32,000 nucleotides of DNA from Promethearchaeota archaeon (lineage in GTDB: Archaea > Asgardarchaeota > Lokiarchaeia > Sigyniarchaeales > SOKP01): assembly GCA_030606485.1 (NCBI GenBank), contig JAUWGH010000008.1, forward strand, positions 150,001 to 182,000. The letters run 5' to 3'. A program made the translations under genes and the position numbers. This document shows positions 12,582 through 23,704 of this stretch, piece by piece (position 1 is the stretch's first letter; every line of letters starts with the position of its first letter). The notes under the pieces are model-generated. The model had not been told where the DNA came from. It ran no database searches and was given only the letters and a program-made list of their open reading frames with translations.

Positions 12582-15299
12582 ATGGTTATGGATATTAATC
12601 CTAATGATTTTATCGATAAAAATTTAATCAAAACTATTAATAAGCTAAATAAATTTATAGATAAGGTTAAAAAAGAGAAAATTAAGGAAATTATTGAAGA
12701 GTTAGAGCAATTTACAAAAGTTGAACATCTTAATGTTCAAGCTTTATATATTTTAAGTATTCTTGCGGAGAAATTTCCACAGCTTTTCGAGAGAAATAAT
12801 ATAGAATCTATTAAAATAAATCTGGATTCCAATAATGTAAAAGCAAAAATAAATACATTAATAATTATTGGATTTTATTTACGTGAAAACCTTAAAAAAG
12901 AAAAAGTATTAGTAAAAAGATTTCTAGACTATTTAAAAGACGATGAGGAAGAGATTGTTGAAAATATACTATTTTTTTTAAATTATTTTGCTGAAAATGA
13001 ACCGGATATTATTGAAAATAATAGCGATTTACTTTTAAATTTATTCTATACAGAGACGGATATTAATAAAATAAATATACTTTTAGAAATTATTGATAAG
13101 TTTAAACTAAGAAGTCTTTCAGTAATAATAAGAATTAGAGATATATTACAATTTTTAATTCAAACCTATGACAATGAATATATATTAAAGAAAGCAATTG
13201 AAATTCTCTCAAAATTTATTTCTGAAGTAAAAAATATTAAATACTCTAAAAAAAAAAAGAGAAATATATTAGAAATAATTGCAAAGAAAATTCTACTGAA
13301 AAGATATAATTTAATCATTAAAAATGGAAATCTAGAAAATATAATTAATGATTTCAAAAAAAAAATAAAAAATACAATAAAAAATGAGAATATATATTAT
13401 TGCTACATAAAGGATAAAGAGAAACTATTTTTTATTGAATTTGAAAAATCTAAAATCTTACACTTTTTAGAAAATAAACGGGTATCTCTTAAGGAGCTAC
13501 TAGAAGTCTTATCTGAAGTAATCGAAAACACTTCACAATTAAAGTTATTTCTGTTAAATTTGATTCAATTTAAATTAATAAAAGGATATGTTTCTGAGTT
13601 TTATTTTTACTCTTATGGTTATGTAAAAACAAATATATTAACCAATATCGTGGATAAAGGCTTTATTGATTTAACTGAGTATAAGCATATTGAACCCAAT
13701 TTTATTGAATTAATTCTTGAGGATATAAAATCTGAATTAAAATATACATTATTATATAATAAATCTAAGAAGGTTGTTTACTCTCTCAAAAAGATTATTG
13801 AAGATATTTCTCATTTAGCCTCAAAAGAAAGTGTTATAAATCTGAAACTGTATCACGGATTATTTGATGATAATAATTTTCTAAAAATTATAAAGAAACT
13901 TCCCAAAGGTTATTTAACAGATTATCATATAAGAACAAATTGGCTAACTAATGTTGGAAAAACAAAAATAGTAAATGAATTTGAGAACTCTAAAAAAATC
14001 GGTTTTTTTGATAAGAAGAAGATTAGTGAAAAATTGAGTATTCCTGAAATTCTTCTTGATTCATTTATCAATTCAATTTTAAATTCACAATTAGGTTTTT
14101 GGGATAAATTTCAAGAAATTTTCTATTATTCTAAATATATTCAAGACCAAATAGATAAATTTAGAACCGTTACCGATGAGAAGATAAAAAATCAAAAAAT
14201 TTATTCTTTAGCACAGAAGTTAAATATAGATCAAGACCAAATTCAATTGAAAATTAATGAAGAAATTCAGAAATTTGGTGAAAAAATTAAAAGCAAAGGA
14301 GAAATAAGTATTTCGGAATATATGGATAAAATGGGGATGGATTCTAAAAGATTTTTTAATTTTATTAACAGTTTAAATATTACTTATTTCAAAAAAGGCG
14401 ATTTACTTTACTTAAATGAGGATAAAATATTAGATATAAAAAATGAAGTTAGAAAACAGATAAAGCTTCAATCGAAATCTCAATCTCAACTAATTTTAGG
14501 GAATTTTAATATAAAACAATCAATCGTCAAAGAAATTATTGAAGATTTAGAACAATCAGAGAATTTAAAAGGAATTTTTTGTGAAGAAGGGAATCAAATA
14601 ATTTTTTATACTAAGAAGGGAATTAATAACAAAATTCTGGAATCTACCGATATTTTCTTTATAGATGAATTATTTCCTGGGAAGAAATTGACGGATGATA
14701 AGTATATATTGATTGAGAATATTATAAAATCTCTGATTAAAAATAAAACTCTTATTGGAACATATGATGAATCGAATCGCAATTTTATAAGTTCTGATAT
14801 TGAATTTTCAACGAGTTATAATGATGCTATTAACCAATTCGTAAATTTAATTGAATATTATTGTACTATATTTGAAAGGACATTTAAATCTATTAGGAGT
14901 ATATTAATAAAAGATAATGAGATAATTAGACCAGCTGAAATTACTTTATTACAAAATTCTTTTGATGAATTAATAAAATCTTATGTACGTTGGCGCTCTC
15001 AAATAAGTATAATGAAATCTAAACAAACATCTATTTTTTTGAAACAACAAAGCATATATTCAAAAAAAGAATTTGAACTTTTATCTGAAGAGGAGAAAAA
15101 TGAAATTAAAGATTTCAAAGAAGAACAACGGATTAAAGAGGCAGAAGATATTTTTAATGCGTGGGTAAAATTATTTAAAGAATTAGAATTAAATTATGGA
15201 AAATTAATATTTTATCAAAAAAAAATGTTAATTAATCCAGATGATAAGGAAACTAGAAAAAAATTGAAAGAACTCTACGATTTTCTAGATTTGAAATAA
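12582..15299 (+). CDS. Large protein: N-terminal HEAT/ARM-like repeats, central tandem winged-helix (PCI/UFL1-like) repeats, C-terminal helical region
   Basis: HEAT-like units (LDSNNVKAKINTL; LKDDEEEIVENIL). Repeated helix + 'L(I)xG' + aromatic beta-hairpin units (LIKGYVSEFYFYS, QLGFWDKFQEIFYYS, LKGIFCEEGNQIIFYT, LIGTYDESNRNFIS). Confidence 0.65.
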   Translation: MVMDINPNDFIDKNLIKTINKLNKFIDKVKKEKIKEIIEELEQFTKVEHLNVQALYILSILAEKFPQLFERNNIESIKINLDSNNVKAKINTLIIIGFYLRENLKKEKVLVKRFLDYLKDDEEEIVENILFFLNYFAENEPDIIENNSDLLLNLFYTETDINKINILLEIIDKFKLRSLSVIIRIRDILQFLIQTYDNEYILKKAIEILSKFISEVKNIKYSKKKKRNILEIIAKKILLKRYNLIIKNGNLENIINDFKKKIKNTIKNENIYYCYIKDKEKLFFIEFEKSKILHFLENKRVSLKELLEVLSEVIENTSQLKLFLLNLIQFKLIKGYVSEFYFYSYGYVKTNILTNIVDKGFIDLTEYKHIEPNFIELILEDIKSELKYTLLYNKSKKVVYSLKKIIEDISHLASKESVINLKLYHGLFDDNNFLKIIKKLPKGYLTDYHIRTNWLTNVGKTKIVNEFENSKKIGFFDKKKISEKLSIPEILLDSFINSILNSQLGFWDKFQEIFYYSKYIQDQIDKFRTVTDEKIKNQKIYSLAQKLNIDQDQIQLKINEEIQKFGEKIKSKGEISISEYMDKMGMDSKRFFNFINSLNITYFKKGDLLYLNEDKILDIKNEVRKQIKLQSKSQSQLILGNFNIKQSIVKEIIEDLEQSENLKGIFCEEGNQIIFYTKKGINNKILESTDIFFIDELFPGKKLTDDKYILIENIIKSLIKNKTLIGTYDESNRNFISSDIEFSTSYNDAINQFVNLIEYYCTIFERTFKSIRSILIKDNEIIRPAEITLLQNSFDELIKSYVRWRSQISIMKSKQTSIFLKQQSIYSKKEFELLSEEEKNEIKDFKEEQRIKEAEDIFNAWVKLFKELELNYGKLIFYQKKMLINPDDKETRKKLKELYDFLDLK

Positions 15300-15321: not shown

Positions 15322-16131
15322 TTAGTTTATAAAATTAATCAAATCTGAGATTTTATTCAAAATAATATCTGGTTTAATTTCTGATTTTTCAATCATTTCT
15401 CGTGTAGTTTCTCCCGATAATACACAAATAGTAGATACTCCAGCCTTTATTCCCATTTTTATATCTGTATATAACCGATCTCCAACAATTACTGCATCAT
15501 TTGGAGAAATTCCTAACTCTCTTAATTTAAATAGAAGCATTTCTTTATTGGGTTTTCCAAAAATTTTAGGTTTCTTTCCAGTTGCCTCATATAGCAGAGA
15601 AATTATTGCTCCTGCATCAGGGATATATCCTTTTTTTGTGGGACATACTTTATCAGGATGAGTAGCGATAAAAGGAATGTTATTTTGTAAGAAATATGAA
15701 GCTTTTACTAATTTCTCATATGTAAGTTCTTTATCGAAACCTAAAACAACAATTTCTGGATCCTTATCCGTAATTTCAAATCCTTTTTCAATAAATTCGG
15801 ATTGTAATGATTTTGTGCCAAGAAGAAATATTTTCTTAACATTTTCTTTTTTTAAAAAATAAATCGTTGGATGTGTTGAAATAATAACATCTTCAATACT
15901 TACATCTAAACCTAACTTATTTAATTTTAGAACATATTCTTTAGTAGAAATACTTGAATTATTTGATAAAAAAAAGAATCTCTTATTGAAGATTTTCATT
16001 AATTTTATTAATTCTTGAACTCCTTCAAATAAAATATCTTCTAAATAAAGAGTACCGTCTAAATCAAAAAAAAATACCTTCTTTTTTCTCAAAAACTCTA
16101 AATTTATACTGAAATTGGTTTTTTTTATCAT
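15322..16131 (-). CDS. HAD-superfamily subfamily IIA hydrolase (NagD-like phosphatase)
   Basis: DLDGT motif I, SNNS motif II, GKP motif III, GDRLYTDI motif IV, cap motif ATHPD. Confidence 0.92.
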   Translation of the reverse strand: MIKKTNFSINLEFLRKKKVFFFDLDGTLYLEDILFEGVQELIKLMKIFNKRFFFLSNNSSISTKEYVLKLNKLGLDVSIEDVIISTHPTIYFLKKENVKKIFLLGTKSLQSEFIEKGFEITDKDPEIVVLGFDKELTYEKLVKASYFLQNNIPFIATHPDKVCPTKKGYIPDAGAIISLLYEATGKKPKIFGKPNKEMLLFKLRELGISPNDAVIVGDRLYTDIKMGIKAGVSTICVLSGETTREMIEKSEIKPDIILNKISDLINFIN

Positions 16132-16481: not shown

Positions 16482-18167
16482 TTACGGTATCATATGTGGA
16501 GGTGGGGTTTTTAAACAAAATCCACATTTACCAAATGAAGAAATTGTTTGATCCCAACAATGTTTATGATATAATCTTTCACAATACGGACATTCCGTTC
16601 GACATTGATTACCATCAGCAGATGCAATAGGTAGTTTACAGGTACCGTCAGGACATTGAATTTGATGACAAATTACACATGAAATAACCGATACTTCAAA
16701 AATCTTTTTAGATATTGCGTTAAATAAATCAATCAGATATGTAAAAGGAGTCCAGTCATCAAAAAATTGCTGAATAGATGCTTCAAGTTTCTTTTTTATT
16801 GGCTCATGGATCTCATCTTCAAATTCATTTAATACTTTAAGTTCGGGAGGATTCATAGGATAATTTGGGGGTAAAATTGCTTGAAATTCAAAAATTATAT
16901 TCTCGGTTTTCATTTTACCTTTCATTTTCAGATTAATTGTATTTGTGAAAGCGTCAAATTGAAGCTCATCAATGCCACCTTTTAACAAATTAATCTCAAA
17001 ATTTACTCTCGAATTTTTATCAACTAACCAAGATATTTCTCTTAAAATATCCACTACTTCTGATTGTTTAGGTATCCAACTCTTGATTGAGTCTAACTTA
17101 GAAGGAGAAGTTTGTATTAAACTATTTAATTCTGGGCTATATTGCAAAACGGGTGGGTTTGGATATTTGCTAATATCTATCTCTAAATTATATTCTTTAA
17201 ATCCATAGGTAAGTAAATGAACATTCAACTTTGAAATATTTCCCTCTATTGATTCAGCTTGATATTCTCCTGATATTTTTTTACATTGAACTTCAATATC
17301 TTTTATAAAAAATAATTTACTTTCGATTTCTCTTATTAACTCTGCAATATGTGGGGGTGATTTTGAGTTCCATTTTTTAAGCAAATCAAGTTCTTTCTCT
17401 GGTTCTCCCAAAAGATTAATTACTTTTTCTGGAAATGTAACAATGGGTTTTTTGGGGTAGTCATTAAAATCAATCCCGATGATAAATGTTTTTTCTAAAG
17501 TAATTGTGAGATATACGTCGATATATGCTTTATTTTTACCTTTTTGATCAATTGGATATTCCATTTGGATTAATCCTAATTCTGTAGTGACTTCTAAAGG
17601 CATAGTAAATGTTTCTTCAGTAAAAGATTGCGTTTCTGGTTTTAGGGGTTGAAATGATTCTTCTTTTGGTTTTTCTTCTTCATAATAGTCAGGAGTAATG
17701 AATGAGTCTTGCTGAAGAGAAAGTTCTTCTGCAGGATATTTGGAATAATCTGGAGTAATATACTCTTCTGATTTCTGGGATTCTTCGTTAAATTTCTGCT
17801 CTAAAACAGATTGTTCAACAATTGGTTGAATGGGAGCTAAATCTTCTTCAATTTTTGCTGTTCCACTTAAAGTACTTTGAATTTTTCCTTTTAATTCTTT
17901 TATTATATCAACAACTCTTAAATCAGGAGTCCAATTTTTCATGTTATCAAGATTTATATCTCCTAATAAATCTTTTATTTCTTGATGAAGTATTATTTGA
18001 GGAGGGGCATGAGGAAATGTTTCATCAAATTTCACCTCTATAATGAATTTTTGTTCTGAGGTTTCATATACTGCTCCATATAAATGAGCAATATTTCCAG
18101 ATACCATCCAAAAAGAAAATTGTGATGCAATAATTTGAGCTTCTTTTAAAATTCTCTGCTTTTCCAT
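16482..18167 (-). CDS. Four tandem UBC/RWD-like (UEV) domains + C-terminal Cys/His-rich RING-like domain; putative E3 ubiquitin-like ligase
   Basis: Four copies of the UBC-fold signature (F/Y)Pxx(P)P ... LDxL/IxxW(T/N/I)P ... VxDII. C-terminal CxxC...CxxC-x4-H-x2-C-x10-CxxC. Confidence 0.75.
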   Translation of the reverse strand: MEKQRILKEAQIIASQFSFWMVSGNIAHLYGAVYETSEQKFIIEVKFDETFPHAPPQIILHQEIKDLLGDINLDNMKNWTPDLRVVDIIKELKGKIQSTLSGTAKIEEDLAPIQPIVEQSVLEQKFNEESQKSEEYITPDYSKYPAEELSLQQDSFITPDYYEEEKPKEESFQPLKPETQSFTEETFTMPLEVTTELGLIQMEYPIDQKGKNKAYIDVYLTITLEKTFIIGIDFNDYPKKPIVTFPEKVINLLGEPEKELDLLKKWNSKSPPHIAELIREIESKLFFIKDIEVQCKKISGEYQAESIEGNISKLNVHLLTYGFKEYNLEIDISKYPNPPVLQYSPELNSLIQTSPSKLDSIKSWIPKQSEVVDILREISWLVDKNSRVNFEINLLKGGIDELQFDAFTNTINLKMKGKMKTENIIFEFQAILPPNYPMNPPELKVLNEFEDEIHEPIKKKLEASIQQFFDDWTPFTYLIDLFNAISKKIFEVSVISCVICHQIQCPDGTCKLPIASADGNQCRTECPYCERLYHKHCWDQTISSFGKCGFCLKTPPPHMIP

Positions 18168-18247
18168 AATCGATCAAAAAATTATCTTTAGATTCACTAA
18201 TTATGTATTAAAATCGAACTTCTGGAATAAAAATATATGTAAAATAA

Positions 18248-19147
18248 CTATAAATTTTTATGCTCTTTCATAAAATTGAGACCCTCATCTAAATCTAAAA
18301 CTTTTAATTTATTTCCCAATATTTTTTTAAGCTTGGATATATTGAGTGAAGCATTTTTTGGTCTAATGGCTTTTTGTTTAAAAAATTTAATTGGTTGGAT
18401 TAAATTTTGTGAAAAATTAAAAACTTCAGCACATTTTACTGCCATTTCATATCGATTGAGAGCACAATCTCCAACAGTATGAATAATTTCTGATTTATTA
18501 TGATCAATTAAATGTAATAAAATTTCTGCTAAGTTATTTGCTAAAGTTGGAGAATTTATTTGATTAGTAATAATTTTTATTTTATTACCATTTTCTAGAT
18601 TATTTAATATCCAAGTTATGAAATTCTTCCTATGTGGATACCAACCATACAAAACAGCAGTTCTGCAAATTATATAATCAATTCCTGCATTTGTAATGCG
18701 TTTTTCACCTTCAAATTTCGTTTTCGCATAGTAGTTTAATGGCTTAGGGTCTTCAGTTTCTGAATAATCTCCTTTTTTGCCATCAAAAACAAAATCTGTT
18801 GAGAGGAATATTATTTTTGAATTTATTTTTTTGCATCCTAAAGCTACATTTTCAGGACCAAGAATATTTAGATCATGAGCAAATCTCTTCTTATCTTCGC
18901 ATTCATCAACATTGGTATAGGCTGCAGTTAAAATAACAGTATTTGGGTTTATTTTTTTAATAGTCTCTATAGTTTTTTCCCTATTTGTAATATCAATTCT
19001 CTTAAAATCAATCTCTTTTGGGATTCTATTGTTTTGAATGTCTGAAGCAATTGGAATAAATTTATGGTTGTAATTTTCATTTTGAATATAGTGAATTAAT
19101 TTACTCCCTAAGAACCCATTTGCTCCTATTATTAAAACTTTCTGCAA
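18248..19147 (-). CDS. rfbD: dTDP-4-dehydrorhamnose reductase
   Basis: GANGFLG, AAYTNVDECE, STDFVFDG, YAKTK (YxxxK), SPT, RP motifs. Confidence 0.93.
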   Translation of the reverse strand: MQKVLIIGANGFLGSKLIHYIQNENYNHKFIPIASDIQNNRIPKEIDFKRIDITNREKTIETIKKINPNTVILTAAYTNVDECEDKKRFAHDLNILGPENVALGCKKINSKIIFLSTDFVFDGKKGDYSETEDPKPLNYYAKTKFEGEKRITNAGIDYIICRTAVLYGWYPHRKNFITWILNNLENGNKIKIITNQINSPTLANNLAEILLHLIDHNKSEIIHTVGDCALNRYEMAVKCAEVFNFSQNLIQPIKFFKQKAIRPKNASLNISKLKKILGNKLKVLDLDEGLNFMKEHKNL

Positions 19148-19177
19148 GATTTCTTAAAACCAATTTTTTTAAAATAT

Positions 19178-20200
19178 TTAACGGTCCTTATACATTTTTT
19201 CATAATATTGAAGATAATCTTCATTGATAACATGGTCTAGCCAATCTTGATTTTTTAAATACCATTGCACTGTATACTTTAATCCATCTTCAATATTGGT
19301 TTTTGGTTCCCAAGATAACTCATTCATAATTTTCTTAAAATTAATTGCATATCTTAAATCATGCCCCGGTCGATCTTTTACAAATTTAATTAAAGTTTCT
19401 GATTTATTTAAAATAGATAAAAGTTTTTTGACCAATTCTAAATTTGAAATTTCAGAATTGCCCCCAATATTATAAATCTCTCCTGGAATTCCATCCTTTA
19501 AAATTAAAAATATTGCTTCGCAATGGTCTTCTACAAAAATCCAATCTCTGATATTTTGTCCGGTTCCATAGATTGGCAATTCTTGATTATTCCTCGCATT
19601 ATTAATCATTAAAGGTATTAATTTTTCAGGAAATTGATAAGGACCGTAATTATTTGAGCAACGGGTGATATTGACTGGTAAATCGAAAGTTTTAAAATAT
19701 GAGCGGACGATTAAATCTGCCGATGCTTTACTTGCAGAATAAGGACTATTTGGTTTTAGTGGTAGATCTTCAGTAAAAGCAGGGTCTTTAAAATTCAACG
19801 ATCCATAGACTTCATCGGTTGAGATTTGGATAAATTTTTTAATTTTTAATTTTTTTGCTACGTTCAGTAAAGATTGAGTTCCTAAGATATTTGTTTTTAT
19901 GAAAATATCAGGATTATCAATAGACCTATCTACATGTGTTTCTGCCGCAAAATTTACAATATAATCGATATTTTCATTCTTTGCGACTTCTAGAATATGA
20001 TCAAAATCACAAATATCGCATTTATAAAATTTATATAAATTCTCATCAAAACCTTCAAATTCTAATAGATTTTCGGGATTTCCAGCATATGTTAAATAAT
20101 CTAAATTAATAACTTTATAATTTTTATGAGTTTTTAATAAGTAGTGAATAAAATTGCTTCCAATAAATCCCATGCCTCCAGAAACTAAAATCGATTCCAT
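19178..20200 (-). CDS. rfbB: dTDP-glucose 4,6-dehydratase
   Basis: GGMGFIG, DYLTYAGN, AAETHVDRSI, STDEVYG, PYSASK, RCSNNYGPYQFPEKLIP, DRPGHDLRY. The in-frame ATG at 20200 is preferred over the TTG at 20215. Confidence 0.96.
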   Translation of the reverse strand: MESILVSGGMGFIGSNFIHYLLKTHKNYKVINLDYLTYAGNPENLLEFEGFDENLYKFYKCDICDFDHILEVAKNENIDYIVNFAAETHVDRSIDNPDIFIKTNILGTQSLLNVAKKLKIKKFIQISTDEVYGSLNFKDPAFTEDLPLKPNSPYSASKASADLIVRSYFKTFDLPVNITRCSNNYGPYQFPEKLIPLMINNARNNQELPIYGTGQNIRDWIFVEDHCEAIFLILKDGIPGEIYNIGGNSEISNLELVKKLLSILNKSETLIKFVKDRPGHDLRYAINFKKIMNELSWEPKTNIEDGLKYTVQWYLKNQDWLDHVINEDYLQYYEKMYKDR

Positions 20201-20227
20201 CTTTCCTTTCTCCAAGTAATAAAATTT

Positions 20228-20692
20228 CTAACCCATTTTAATTTCCCAATCATAATCTATTTCTTTTGAATCGTATGGTAATCGATATTCATCTGGAGTA
20301 TCATAGTTATAAAGTTCCGTTGGACAATTTAGAATTACGGCTTCTTTTCCCCCAATAGCTTTAAACCCATGCCAAACATGATTGGGAATAGTCAATAAAA
20401 TCGGATTTTTCTCCCCCATAAAAAATTCATTTATCTTTTTATATGTTGGTAAATCTTTGCGATTATCACATAAAACAATTTTAGCATTACCTTTGATACA
20501 AACAAAGTAATCAGTTTGAATTTTATGATAGTGCCACGCTTTAACTACGTTTGGATATGCCACTGTAATATATACTTGTCCAAATTTTTTAAACATTGAC
20601 CAATCCGACCTAAAACATTCCATTAAATAACCTCTTTCATCTAAAATTGTATTTAACTTTTTTATCTTAACTCCTTCTATTAAATCTTCCAT
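20228..20692 (-). CDS. rfbC: dTDP-4-dehydrorhamnose 3,5-epimerase family (short cupin type)
   Basis: DERGYLME, VKAWHYH, VWHGF, located inside the rfb cluster. Confidence 0.9.
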   Translation of the reverse strand: MEDLIEGVKIKKLNTILDERGYLMECFRSDWSMFKKFGQVYITVAYPNVVKAWHYHKIQTDYFVCIKGNAKIVLCDNRKDLPTYKKINEFFMGEKNPILLTIPNHVWHGFKAIGGKEAVILNCPTELYNYDTPDEYRLPYDSKEIDYDWEIKMG

Positions 20693-20725
20693 AATTTTTT
20701 CCTCAATTTTTGAATATTATATAAT

Positions 20726-21466
20726 TTATTCTTTATTCAATTGATTTTTTACAAAATTACTGCATTTCAATAATGTCTTAAAAGTTCCTGCATCAGACCA
20801 AAATCCTTTAAAAATTTTAGATTTAGTTTTTCCCTTTTTTATATAATAATTATTAACGTCAGTTATTTCTAATTCTCCCCTTGCTGAATAGCCAATCTCC
20901 TTAATTACATTTTCAATAATATCAAAGACATTCTCATCATAAAAATATAATCCGGTAACGCATAAGTTTGATTTTGGCTCTTTGGGTTTCTCCTCAATAT
21001 TAAGGATTTTCCCATCTTCATCAATTTCTGCAACTCCAAATCGTTCAGGATCAGGTACTTCTTTTAAAAATAACATACACTCCCAATTGTTGGAATTTTC
21101 AAATTCTTGGACCTCCTCCTTAAATTTATCTTCAAAGATATTATCACCTAATATAACAGCGATTTTATGACCTTTAACTATATGTTTTGTTAAACTTAAT
21201 GCCTCAGCAATCCCACCAGCACCTTCTTGATAAACATAACTAAACTTTGCCCCAAATTCTTTTCCATCACCTAGTAATTTAATAAAATCTCCAACGCTTT
21301 CTCCACCTAAGACAATTACAATATCATTTATTCCTGAATTTGATAAAGTTTTTATGACTTTATAAATCATAGGTTCATTATAAACCGCTAATAGATGCTT
21401 ATTGGTAACTTTTGTCAATGGAGATAATCGAGAACCAGTTCCTCCAGCCAATATTACTCCTTTAAT
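20726..21466 (-). CDS. rfbA: Glucose-1-phosphate thymidylyltransferase (short, SpsI-like type)
   Basis: KGVILAGGTGSRL, NKHLL, YQEGAGGIAEA, ILGDN, PERFGV, ELEITD, WSDAGT. The conserved N-terminus extends upstream of the ORF-track TTG at 21451; start placed tentatively at ATT 21466. Confidence 0.88.
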   Translation of the reverse strand: MKGVILAGGTGSRLSPLTKVTNKHLLAVYNEPMIYKVIKTLSNSGINDIVIVLGGESVGDFIKLLGDGKEFGAKFSYVYQEGAGGIAEALSLTKHIVKGHKIAVILGDNIFEDKFKEEVQEFENSNNWECMLFLKEVPDPERFGVAEIDEDGKILNIEEKPKEPKSNLCVTGLYFYDENVFDIIENVIKEIGYSARGELEITDVNNYYIKKGKTKSKIFKGFWSDAGTFKTLLKCSNFVKNQLNKE

Positions 21467-23277: not shown

Positions 23278-23580
23278 TCAATTTTTTACTAGTTTTTCTT
23301 TTTTTGCTTCTGCAATACCACCAGCACCTTCTTGATAAACATAACTAAAGTTAGCTCCAAATTCTTTTCCATTTCCTAATAATCTAATAAAATCTCCAAC
23401 ACTTTCTCCTCCTAATACTATAATAATATCTCTAATCCATGAATTTGTTAAGGTTTTAATCACTTTATAAATCATTGGTTCATCATAAACCGCCAATAAA
23501 TGCTTATTAGTAACATTTGTTAATGAAGACATTCGAGATCCAGTTCCACCAGCTAATATTACTCCTTTAATTTTTCTCAC
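23278..23580 (-). pseudogene. rfbA: Truncated paralog of glucose-1-phosphate thymidylyltransferase (N-terminal ~90 aa only)
   Basis: 78/89 aa identical to the start of the full rfbA. Homology stops after GIAEA (~23305) and is followed by an A-rich tail (KKEKLVKN*). Has a G-to-W change. GTG at 23580 is the likely start. Confidence 0.85.
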
Positions 23581-23704
23581 TATTTTTACTTTATCTTCTA
23601 ACAATTGCTGATTATTTATAAATAATATATAAAGAAAATTATTTAAAAATTAGATAGAAACTAATTAATTATAAAGATTTAGAAAAAAATGAATAATTGT
23701 ACGA

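Follow-up and report, generated by a model that had tools for sequence, protein, structure and literature searches.

The DNA examined here (hereafter the window) is a stretch of 32,000 nucleotides from an Asgard archaeon. On its reverse strand, at positions 16482-18167, the ORF list and translation give a gene of 561 codons plus a stop, the product of which is designated P0001. The region is AT-rich, with a GC fraction of 0.21-0.34 across the window. Four UBC folds, a linker, and a RING make up the protein; neither Pfam nor the structure model indicates a HEAT region. All of its features, like the gene itself, are given below in coordinates of the window and lie on the (-) strand. Downstream of the gene is a HAD hydrolase (15322-16131, -), and farther along is a 905-aa, Lys/Ile-rich protein (12582-15299, +), whose sole Pfam match is a weak one of Cnd1/HEAT type (27.5 bits, aa 52-157).

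Unit 1 (aa 1-102; 17862-18167), assigned by Pfam and the model, is a UEV-like pseudo-E2 that carries the motifs FPHAPP and GDINLD, with the Asn of the latter at the position of the E2 active-site Cys. When scanned alone, it matches the Pfam families UQ_con (E 5.7e-6) and UEV (E 0.058); it is modeled with a pLDDT of 90-97 and lacks any conserved Cys. After the linker comes unit 2 (aa 186-287; 17307-17612), a UBC-like domain identified by hhalign and Pfam BRE, which occupies the position of the ELF domain of FANCL. By sequence, it comes closest to the N-terminal UEV of BRE, and the Pfam BRE model matches 4 of 30 members (E 3.4e-6 at best). Within this unit P238 is invariant, and W266 is at least 90% conserved. 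Unit 3 (aa 288-385; 17013-17306; hhalign and model) is UBC/RWD-like and forms the first lobe of a double-RWD-like pair, while unit 4 (aa 386-494; 16686-17012) has a canonical RWD/UBC fold without Cys and, scanned alone with Pfam, gives RWD at E 1.9e-4 and UQ_con at E 4.6e-4. A motif of the form [FY]PxxP(P) is present at aa 51, 237, 335, and 436, and a Trp lies 28-36 residues beyond each (aa 79, 266, 364, and 472).

The preliminary description of this DNA, made from the sequence alone, had proposed four UBC-fold units, none with the catalytic Cys of an E2, and had held that the proposal would fall if the units did not model as UBC/RWD folds. In the AF2 models they do so, each consisting of a helix, then 3-4 strands, then helices, and the motifs, Pfam, and unit-unit profiles agree. 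With the whole protein as query, Pfam returns UQ_con at 36.4 bits (cut-off 27) and RWD at 26.3 bits (cut-off 22.8); across 30 aligned homologues, UQ_con is found in 30, RWD in 29, and the listerin UBC_like family (PF23009) in 23. Profile comparison of unit against unit by hhalign gives E values of 2.4e-10 (units 1 and 2), 4.1e-9 (1 and 3), 1.9e-12 (2 and 3), and 3.9e-6 (1 and 4), and these relationships indicate that the repeat is real rather than a chance pattern; the comparisons of units 2 and 3 with unit 4 did not reach significance. The profile of units 2-3 had no significant match among PDB sequences (BRE, E 0.16), and a second look with the aligner VIA pertains to unit 4 alone. The helix, the meander of 3-4 strands, the following helices, and the YPxxxP-type motif are those of the non-catalytic branch (UEV, RWD) of the UBC/RWD superfamily, and the catalytic Cys that follows HPN in an active E2 is absent from all four units. 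The presence of only one Cys within aa 1-496 had been noted previously; it is C295, and it is not conserved among homologues.

The linker of about 85 aa that separates units 1 and 2 (aa 103-185; 17613-17861) is acidic and, as judged from pLDDT values below 50 over aa 103-140 and 144-185, disordered, and both its length and its sequence differ between homologues. It contains a short linear motif (aa 134-146; 17730-17768) with the consensus EEYITPDLNAYPPD, drawn from 30 sequences, in which P139, D140, and P145 are invariant and E134, Y136, T138, and Y144 are at least 90% conserved. A second, looser motif, [YF]ITP[SD], follows it in the linker.

The C-terminal finger (aa 495-556; 16500-16685) was assigned as RING-type from the conservation of its ligands and from comparison of its profile with the PDB. 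Ten Cys lie within aa 497-551. In an alignment of the family fingers together with fingers from unrelated fusion proteins, 11 ligands are invariant or nearly so, and H536 is conserved in addition. The preliminary description had called this a C4HC3 finger. The eight positions of such a RING (C497, C500, C526, C529, H534, C537, C548, and C551) are indeed invariant or nearly so and in C4HC3 order, but there is more to the finger than this, as C505, C510, C522, and H536 are also conserved. The first three of these are placed between the first two ligand pairs, and H534, H536, and C537 form the sequence H-x-H-C. The pattern of conservation suggests zinc sites composed of C497/C500/H534/C537 and C526/C529/C548/C551, which would be paired in a cross-brace, and a third site composed of C505/C510/C522/H536. 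H536 is replaced by Cys in two relatives and by Arg in the sole relative that lacks C505, C510, and C522, a covariation that supports a putative third site of the Rbx1 kind. H501 was considered as a ligand and rejected, as relatives have H, Y, F, K, G, or R at this position.

Among solved structures, the best match to the family finger profile is the RING of Pirh2 (E 1.5e-5), followed by APC11 (E 1.5e-4) and Rbx1 (E 8e-4), and the APC11 alignment is collinear with the finger, inserted Cys cluster included. In the model, a helix at aa 535-545 that starts at H534/C537 corresponds to the central helix. I499 and W538, at the usual E2-contact positions of RINGs, are kept hydrophobic. The residue after the last zinc ligand, the linchpin site, which is Arg, Lys, or Asn in many active RINGs, is Leu or Met in this family and is followed by K, R, E, or Q. 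Weak profile matches to PHD and C1 fingers (E 0.002-0.025) and to Rubicon-homology fingers also occur. When unit 4 plus the RING was modeled in complex with the only canonical E2 of the genome, the prediction scored 0.30, where the mark was 0.32, a result that carries no weight on either side as regards binding.

The AF2 model of the full protein has a pLDDT of 83.6, and that of aa 186-561 a pLDDT of 87.5 and a pTM of 0.70. A long helix (aa 371-398) joins unit 3 to unit 4, as in double-RWD proteins. The preliminary description had likened the architecture to that of FANCL and, secondarily, to BRE/BABAM2, and had called for AlphaFold modeling and a Foldseek search. In that search, both models retrieve FANCL first from the PDB (7kzp_L, E 1.4e-8, 404 columns against a 370-aa chain), followed by BRE/BABAM2 as the second structural family (6gvw_C, E 1.7e-7), the RWD-RING of listerin (9ofv_e, E 6.8e-6), and fly FANCL (E 1.5e-4). 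Further matches are the FANCL double RWD 3zqs, the kinetochore double RWDs of Knl1 and CENP-O, and 9a0j_L and 3k1l. A fold search of the ESM Atlas returns the protein's own family, then FANCL clusters, then listerin clusters, and then RNF25 and BRE, and FANCL is likewise the first non-self family by language-model features (0.89, to be taken as a lead only). Both likenesses have thus held up, and the domain order of FANCL (ELF, double RWD, C-terminal RING) is found in aa 186-561, which align with it end to end. The TM-scores are low (0.29-0.37), and the orientations of the domains differ; the resemblance lies in the order and the folds of the domains rather than in a rigid shape.

More than 300 full-length homologues, with 50-97% identity, were found, and wherever their source is named it is an Asgard metagenome bin. 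A search of 1.84 billion representative proteins adds short relatives of about 365-460 aa, which correspond to units 2-4 plus the finger. The finger alone is also found fused to beta-helix/NosD proteins (P0175, P0177, P0180, P0181, and P0185) and to an LRR protein (P0182), and these fusions read as a family of modular candidate E3s. At their C-terminus, a conserved Pro-rich tail follows the putative three-zinc finger. In a sample of about 300 genomes from across the phylum, the full architecture is present in 52 of the 68 genomes of the window's own family by single-protein search (65 of the 68 by profile search, some by one domain only) and in one genome of a sister family that belongs to the same taxonomic order. 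Two more families of the window's class have three-unit forms. In the other sampled classes, only single-domain matches were obtained, apart from an RWD-RING protein of 190 aa found in one family (6 of 6 genomes). The full architecture was therefore not found outside one class among the sampled genomes, which is not proof of absence, and this one-class distribution has not been reconciled with the source labels of the homologues, which name several Asgard groups. Metagenomes of cold-seep, marine-sediment, and subsurface origin, drawn from nine studies, contain DNA nearly identical to 16482-18167. In addition, a 296-nt metatranscriptome contig corresponds to 17888-18170 with one mismatch; the rest of the gene is uncovered, and carry-over of DNA is possible.

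Given the likeness to FANCL, it might be postulated that P0001 is a true homologue, descended from a common ancestor in which the ELF/double-RWD/RING order was already present, and that it carries out monoubiquitylation in genome maintenance. The first rank of FANCL in the Foldseek search of the PDB, and among eukaryotic families in the ESM Atlas and by language-model features, would fit such a descent, as would the existence of FANCL-sized forms of 365-430 aa and a weak match of an operon-encoded RWD-RING relative, described below, to the Pfam model FANCL_C (19.1 bits, E 0.0017, below cut-off). However, the FANCL Pfam models matched neither P0001 nor any of its parts, even with E as high as 10, and a scan of the whole genome with FANCL_C and FANCL_d3 did not return the gene. 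The low TM-scores and differing orientations also argue against it, as do the putative extra zinc site and a RING sequence that is nearer to Pirh2, APC11, and Rbx1. Furthermore, listerin and RNF25 fit unit 4 plus the RING at least equally well; the listerin clusters of the ESM Atlas superpose on this portion with an rmsd of 3.3 A over 119 residues. Units 1-3 resemble internal duplications, which fits an independent assembly, the full architecture is confined to one class among those sampled, and no DNA-repair link or context was seen. Homology in this strict sense is consequently judged to be distinctly unlikely. The earlier suggestion of a FANCL relative thus stands as regards architecture but not as regards a Pfam match, and descent from or to FANCL is a candidate relationship.

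The genome to which the window belongs encodes a minimal ubiquitin set at other positions. It has one canonical E2 (90.4 bits), which contains HPN and the active Cys, a 530-aa E1-like protein, the gene for which (L005 1192-2784, -) adjoins that of the E2, and an 84-aa Ub-like protein that ends in GGI. The E2 gene (L001 1423-1932, +; contig 10 of genome G000, about 380.5-381.0 kb) lacks an ATG, GTG, or TTG from which all 169 aa, the length that homologues share at 100% coverage, could be translated. Its frame starts with ATT, 6 bases 3' of GGTG, which suggests a non-canonical start codon. It is adjoined by an ORF that extends past the boundary of the locus (L001 3-977, -), the C-terminal Cys-rich motif of which appears to resemble that of a TnpB/IS605 OrfB transposon protein. 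A HAD protein of a subfamily different from that in the window is encoded between the E2 and E1-like genes (L005 552-1175, +); the presence of HAD genes beside both this pair and the four-unit gene may be a coincidence.

The preliminary description had also asked for a survey of the gene neighborhood, and its outcome is mixed. Ubiquitin-system genes are present neither in the window nor beside the full-length gene in five other loci. Relatives of the gene do adjoin them, which supports the reading of an E3 that had been put forward. In one locus (L016), genes for JAB, Ub, E2, and E1 are followed by one for the 190-aa RWD-RING protein, which matches the family profile at E 7e-16 and unit 4 plus the RING of P0001 in pairwise comparison at E 7e-6. 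In another (L013), the gene after that for a three-unit form of 429 aa is E1-like, and this E1-like product matches the E1-like protein of the window's genome at E 4e-68, with 59% identity over the first 158 aligned residues. In two further families of the same class (L014 and L015), a three-unit short form adjoins a two-RING protein. These neighbors (L014 4853-5950, -, and L015 7174-8301, +) are 365-375 aa long and have a zinc ribbon and two tandem zf-RING_2 domains (30-32 bits). An Asgard E1/E2/RING cascade is active in vitro according to two reports [bioRxiv 10.1101/2023.07.25.550441; PMC5654768].

A different role has to be weighed because all four UBC folds are inactive and the canonical linchpin residue is absent. 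P0001 could be a non-catalytic, ubiquitin-binding scaffold or adaptor, like BRE/BABAM2 or the UEV of ESCRT-I, in which the finger binds protein, lipid, or nucleic acid. The rank of BRE as second structural family, its Pfam model in 4 of 30 members, and the weak finger matches to PHD, C1, and Rubicon-homology fingers are in keeping with such a role. So is the binding of ubiquitin by Asgard UEV domains, which also bind a PxxP motif [bioRxiv 10.1101/2023.07.25.550441]. However, the best and most numerous profile matches of the finger are to solved RING E3 domains, the hydrophobic E2-contact positions I499 and W538 are retained, and the fusion of the finger to varied putative recognition domains is what is seen with the RINGs of E3s. 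In addition, the one-RWD relative fills the E3 slot of the Ub-E2-E1 operon. A purely scaffolding function is thus unlikely.

The genes that do surround P0001 raise another possibility. Directly upstream in the window and on the same strand are rmlA/C/B/D (18248-21451, -), and two other loci (L010 and L012) as well as the contig of P0011 likewise have the gene directly downstream of rml or other sugar genes on the same strand. The gene directly upstream in L011 encodes a GT2 glycosyltransferase, past which lie an epimerase and further glycosyltransferases. Sugar genes also accompany divergent short forms from another family, with a sugar nucleotidyltransferase next to the short form in L013 and a GT4 plus a GtrA gene next to that in L014. 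Thus, the protein might be an E3 or adaptor tied to the synthesis of cell-envelope glycans, either co-regulated with the adjoining sugar machinery or acting upon it. However, most of these genomes belong to one family, and the gene order may simply be inherited; sugar genes are not adjacent in L008, L015, and L017. IleRS, which is often a downstream or divergent neighbor (L011, L012, L017, and the contig of P0011), adjoins the gene equally often. Such a tie is very unlikely. A 108-aa ORF elsewhere in the window (23278-23604, -) matches only the first 90 of the 245 positions of the NTP_transferase model and may be a gene fragment.

Taken together, these results indicate that the gene product is probably a ubiquitin E3 ligase of RING type that belongs to the Asgard ubiquitin system and has pseudo-E2 domains as its scaffold, with ligase activity as a prediction. 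This reading follows from the four UBC/RWD folds and the FANCL-like layout; from the match of the finger profile to solved RINGs, with the central helix and the covariation of the third-site ligands; from the fusion of the same finger to beta-helix/NosD and LRR proteins, as would be expected of a portable E3 module; and from the Ub-like, E1-like, and E2 proteins encoded in the same genome, together with the relatives that adjoin Ub, E2, and E1 genes. It should be noted that the lack of a ubiquitin-system neighbor at the gene itself, the Leu/Met at the linchpin site, the failure of units 2 and 3 to match the sequence of any solved protein significantly, and the weak PHD/C1 matches are points against it. 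In the mechanism proposed for such a ligase, the RING would recruit the charged E2 by way of I499 and W538, and units 2-4 would together act as a fairly rigid platform on which a substrate or partner is held, by analogy with the double RWD of FANCL. Unit 1, on its flexible acidic tether, would bind either ubiquitin or the ITPD/YPPD motif of the linker (EEYITPDLNAYPPD), a role for which the ELF domain of FANCL, Mms2, and the UEV domains of Vps23/Tsg101 provide precedents by analogy.

As to its origin, the protein probably arose when duplicated pseudo-E2 domains were added to a simpler RWD-RING E3 such as that in Asgard ubiquitin operons. A more far-reaching and rather unlikely version of this idea is that the FANCL-type plan itself was assembled in Asgards through stepwise duplication of pseudo-E2 domains onto an operon RWD-RING E3 and that this family survives as a relative of the stock that gave rise to eukaryotic FANCL and perhaps to the RWD-RING modules of listerin and RNF25. 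The series from the one-RWD RING of the operon through the three-unit to the four-unit form provides a testable path of domain accretion. The protein is probably an undescribed archaeal ubiquitin ligase; in the literature searched on Asgard and archaeal proteins of FANCL, RWD, UEV, and RING type, no description of this architecture was found, and one Asgard RWD-like sequence has been remarked upon [PMC6601020]. New here are the relatives in ubiquitin gene contexts (the L016 operon and the E1-like gene of L013) and the restricted distribution.

To our knowledge, the archaeal RING E3 ligases described so far are small, single-domain proteins, and a multi-domain E3 scaffold that handles substrate or ubiquitin is otherwise seen in eukaryotes only. 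If P0001 is active, then a complex E3 architecture either predates eukaryotes or arose in parallel, a matter that bears on how eukaryotic ligases arose. An active P0001 would also be a small, tractable model for cooperation among ELF/RWD/UEV domains and a RING, with a cognate system of one E2 and one E1.

The place of P0001 is in the RWD/UEV-plus-RING class of ligases, where it is laid out like FANCL yet fails the sequence test for FANCL. The latter, the E3 of the Fanconi anaemia core complex, is composed of ELF, double-RWD, and RING domains [PMC4951507]. In both proteins, a C-terminal RING with its ligands in C4HC3 order comes after three UBC-like folds that lack Cys, and a long helix links the last two lobes; they are also similar in size, the human chain having 370 aa and aa 186-561 of P0001 having 376. 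They differ in that P0001 has an extra N-terminal UEV unit on a linker of about 85 aa, a putative third zinc site in its RING, and no match to a Pfam FANCL model, and in the orientation of the domains (rmsd about 26 A, TM 0.29). FANCL works with UBE2T on FANCD2/FANCI within its core complex, and we know of no FA partners in archaea.

Listerin/Ltn1 and RNF25 also have an RWD fold directly before the RING, and in the case of listerin, the Pfam family that matches unit 4 in 23 of 30 members is its own (PF23009, LTN1 UBC_like). In contrast, P0001 has three further pseudo-E2 units and a RING with a putative three zinc sites, and it lacks the HEAT-repeat arm and the N-terminal ribosome-binding domain of listerin. 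With the RING-H2 fingers of Rbx1 and APC11, the finger of P0001 has in common the order of CxxC, an inserted Cys cluster, a ligand pair, H-x-H-C, and CxxC, with a putative third site between pairs 1 and 2 for which H536 appears to behave as the fourth ligand. However, in P0001 the second ligand pair is C-x2-C and not C-x-H, a cullin-binding N-terminal strand is missing, and the finger is fused to pseudo-E2 domains instead of being a free subunit. BRE/BABAM2, the tandem UEV scaffold of the BRISC and BRCA1-A complexes, is similar in its array of inactive UBC folds and in the matches of its Pfam model to unit 2 in some members; unlike P0001, it has no RING and serves as a scaffold for a JAMM deubiquitinase. 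Finally, the RWD-RING protein of the Asgard operon (190 aa, L016 6022-6594) is homologous to unit 4 plus the RING, but it comes from another class of the phylum, and it has one RWD-like domain and a two-zinc C4HC3 finger without the inserted Cys cluster.
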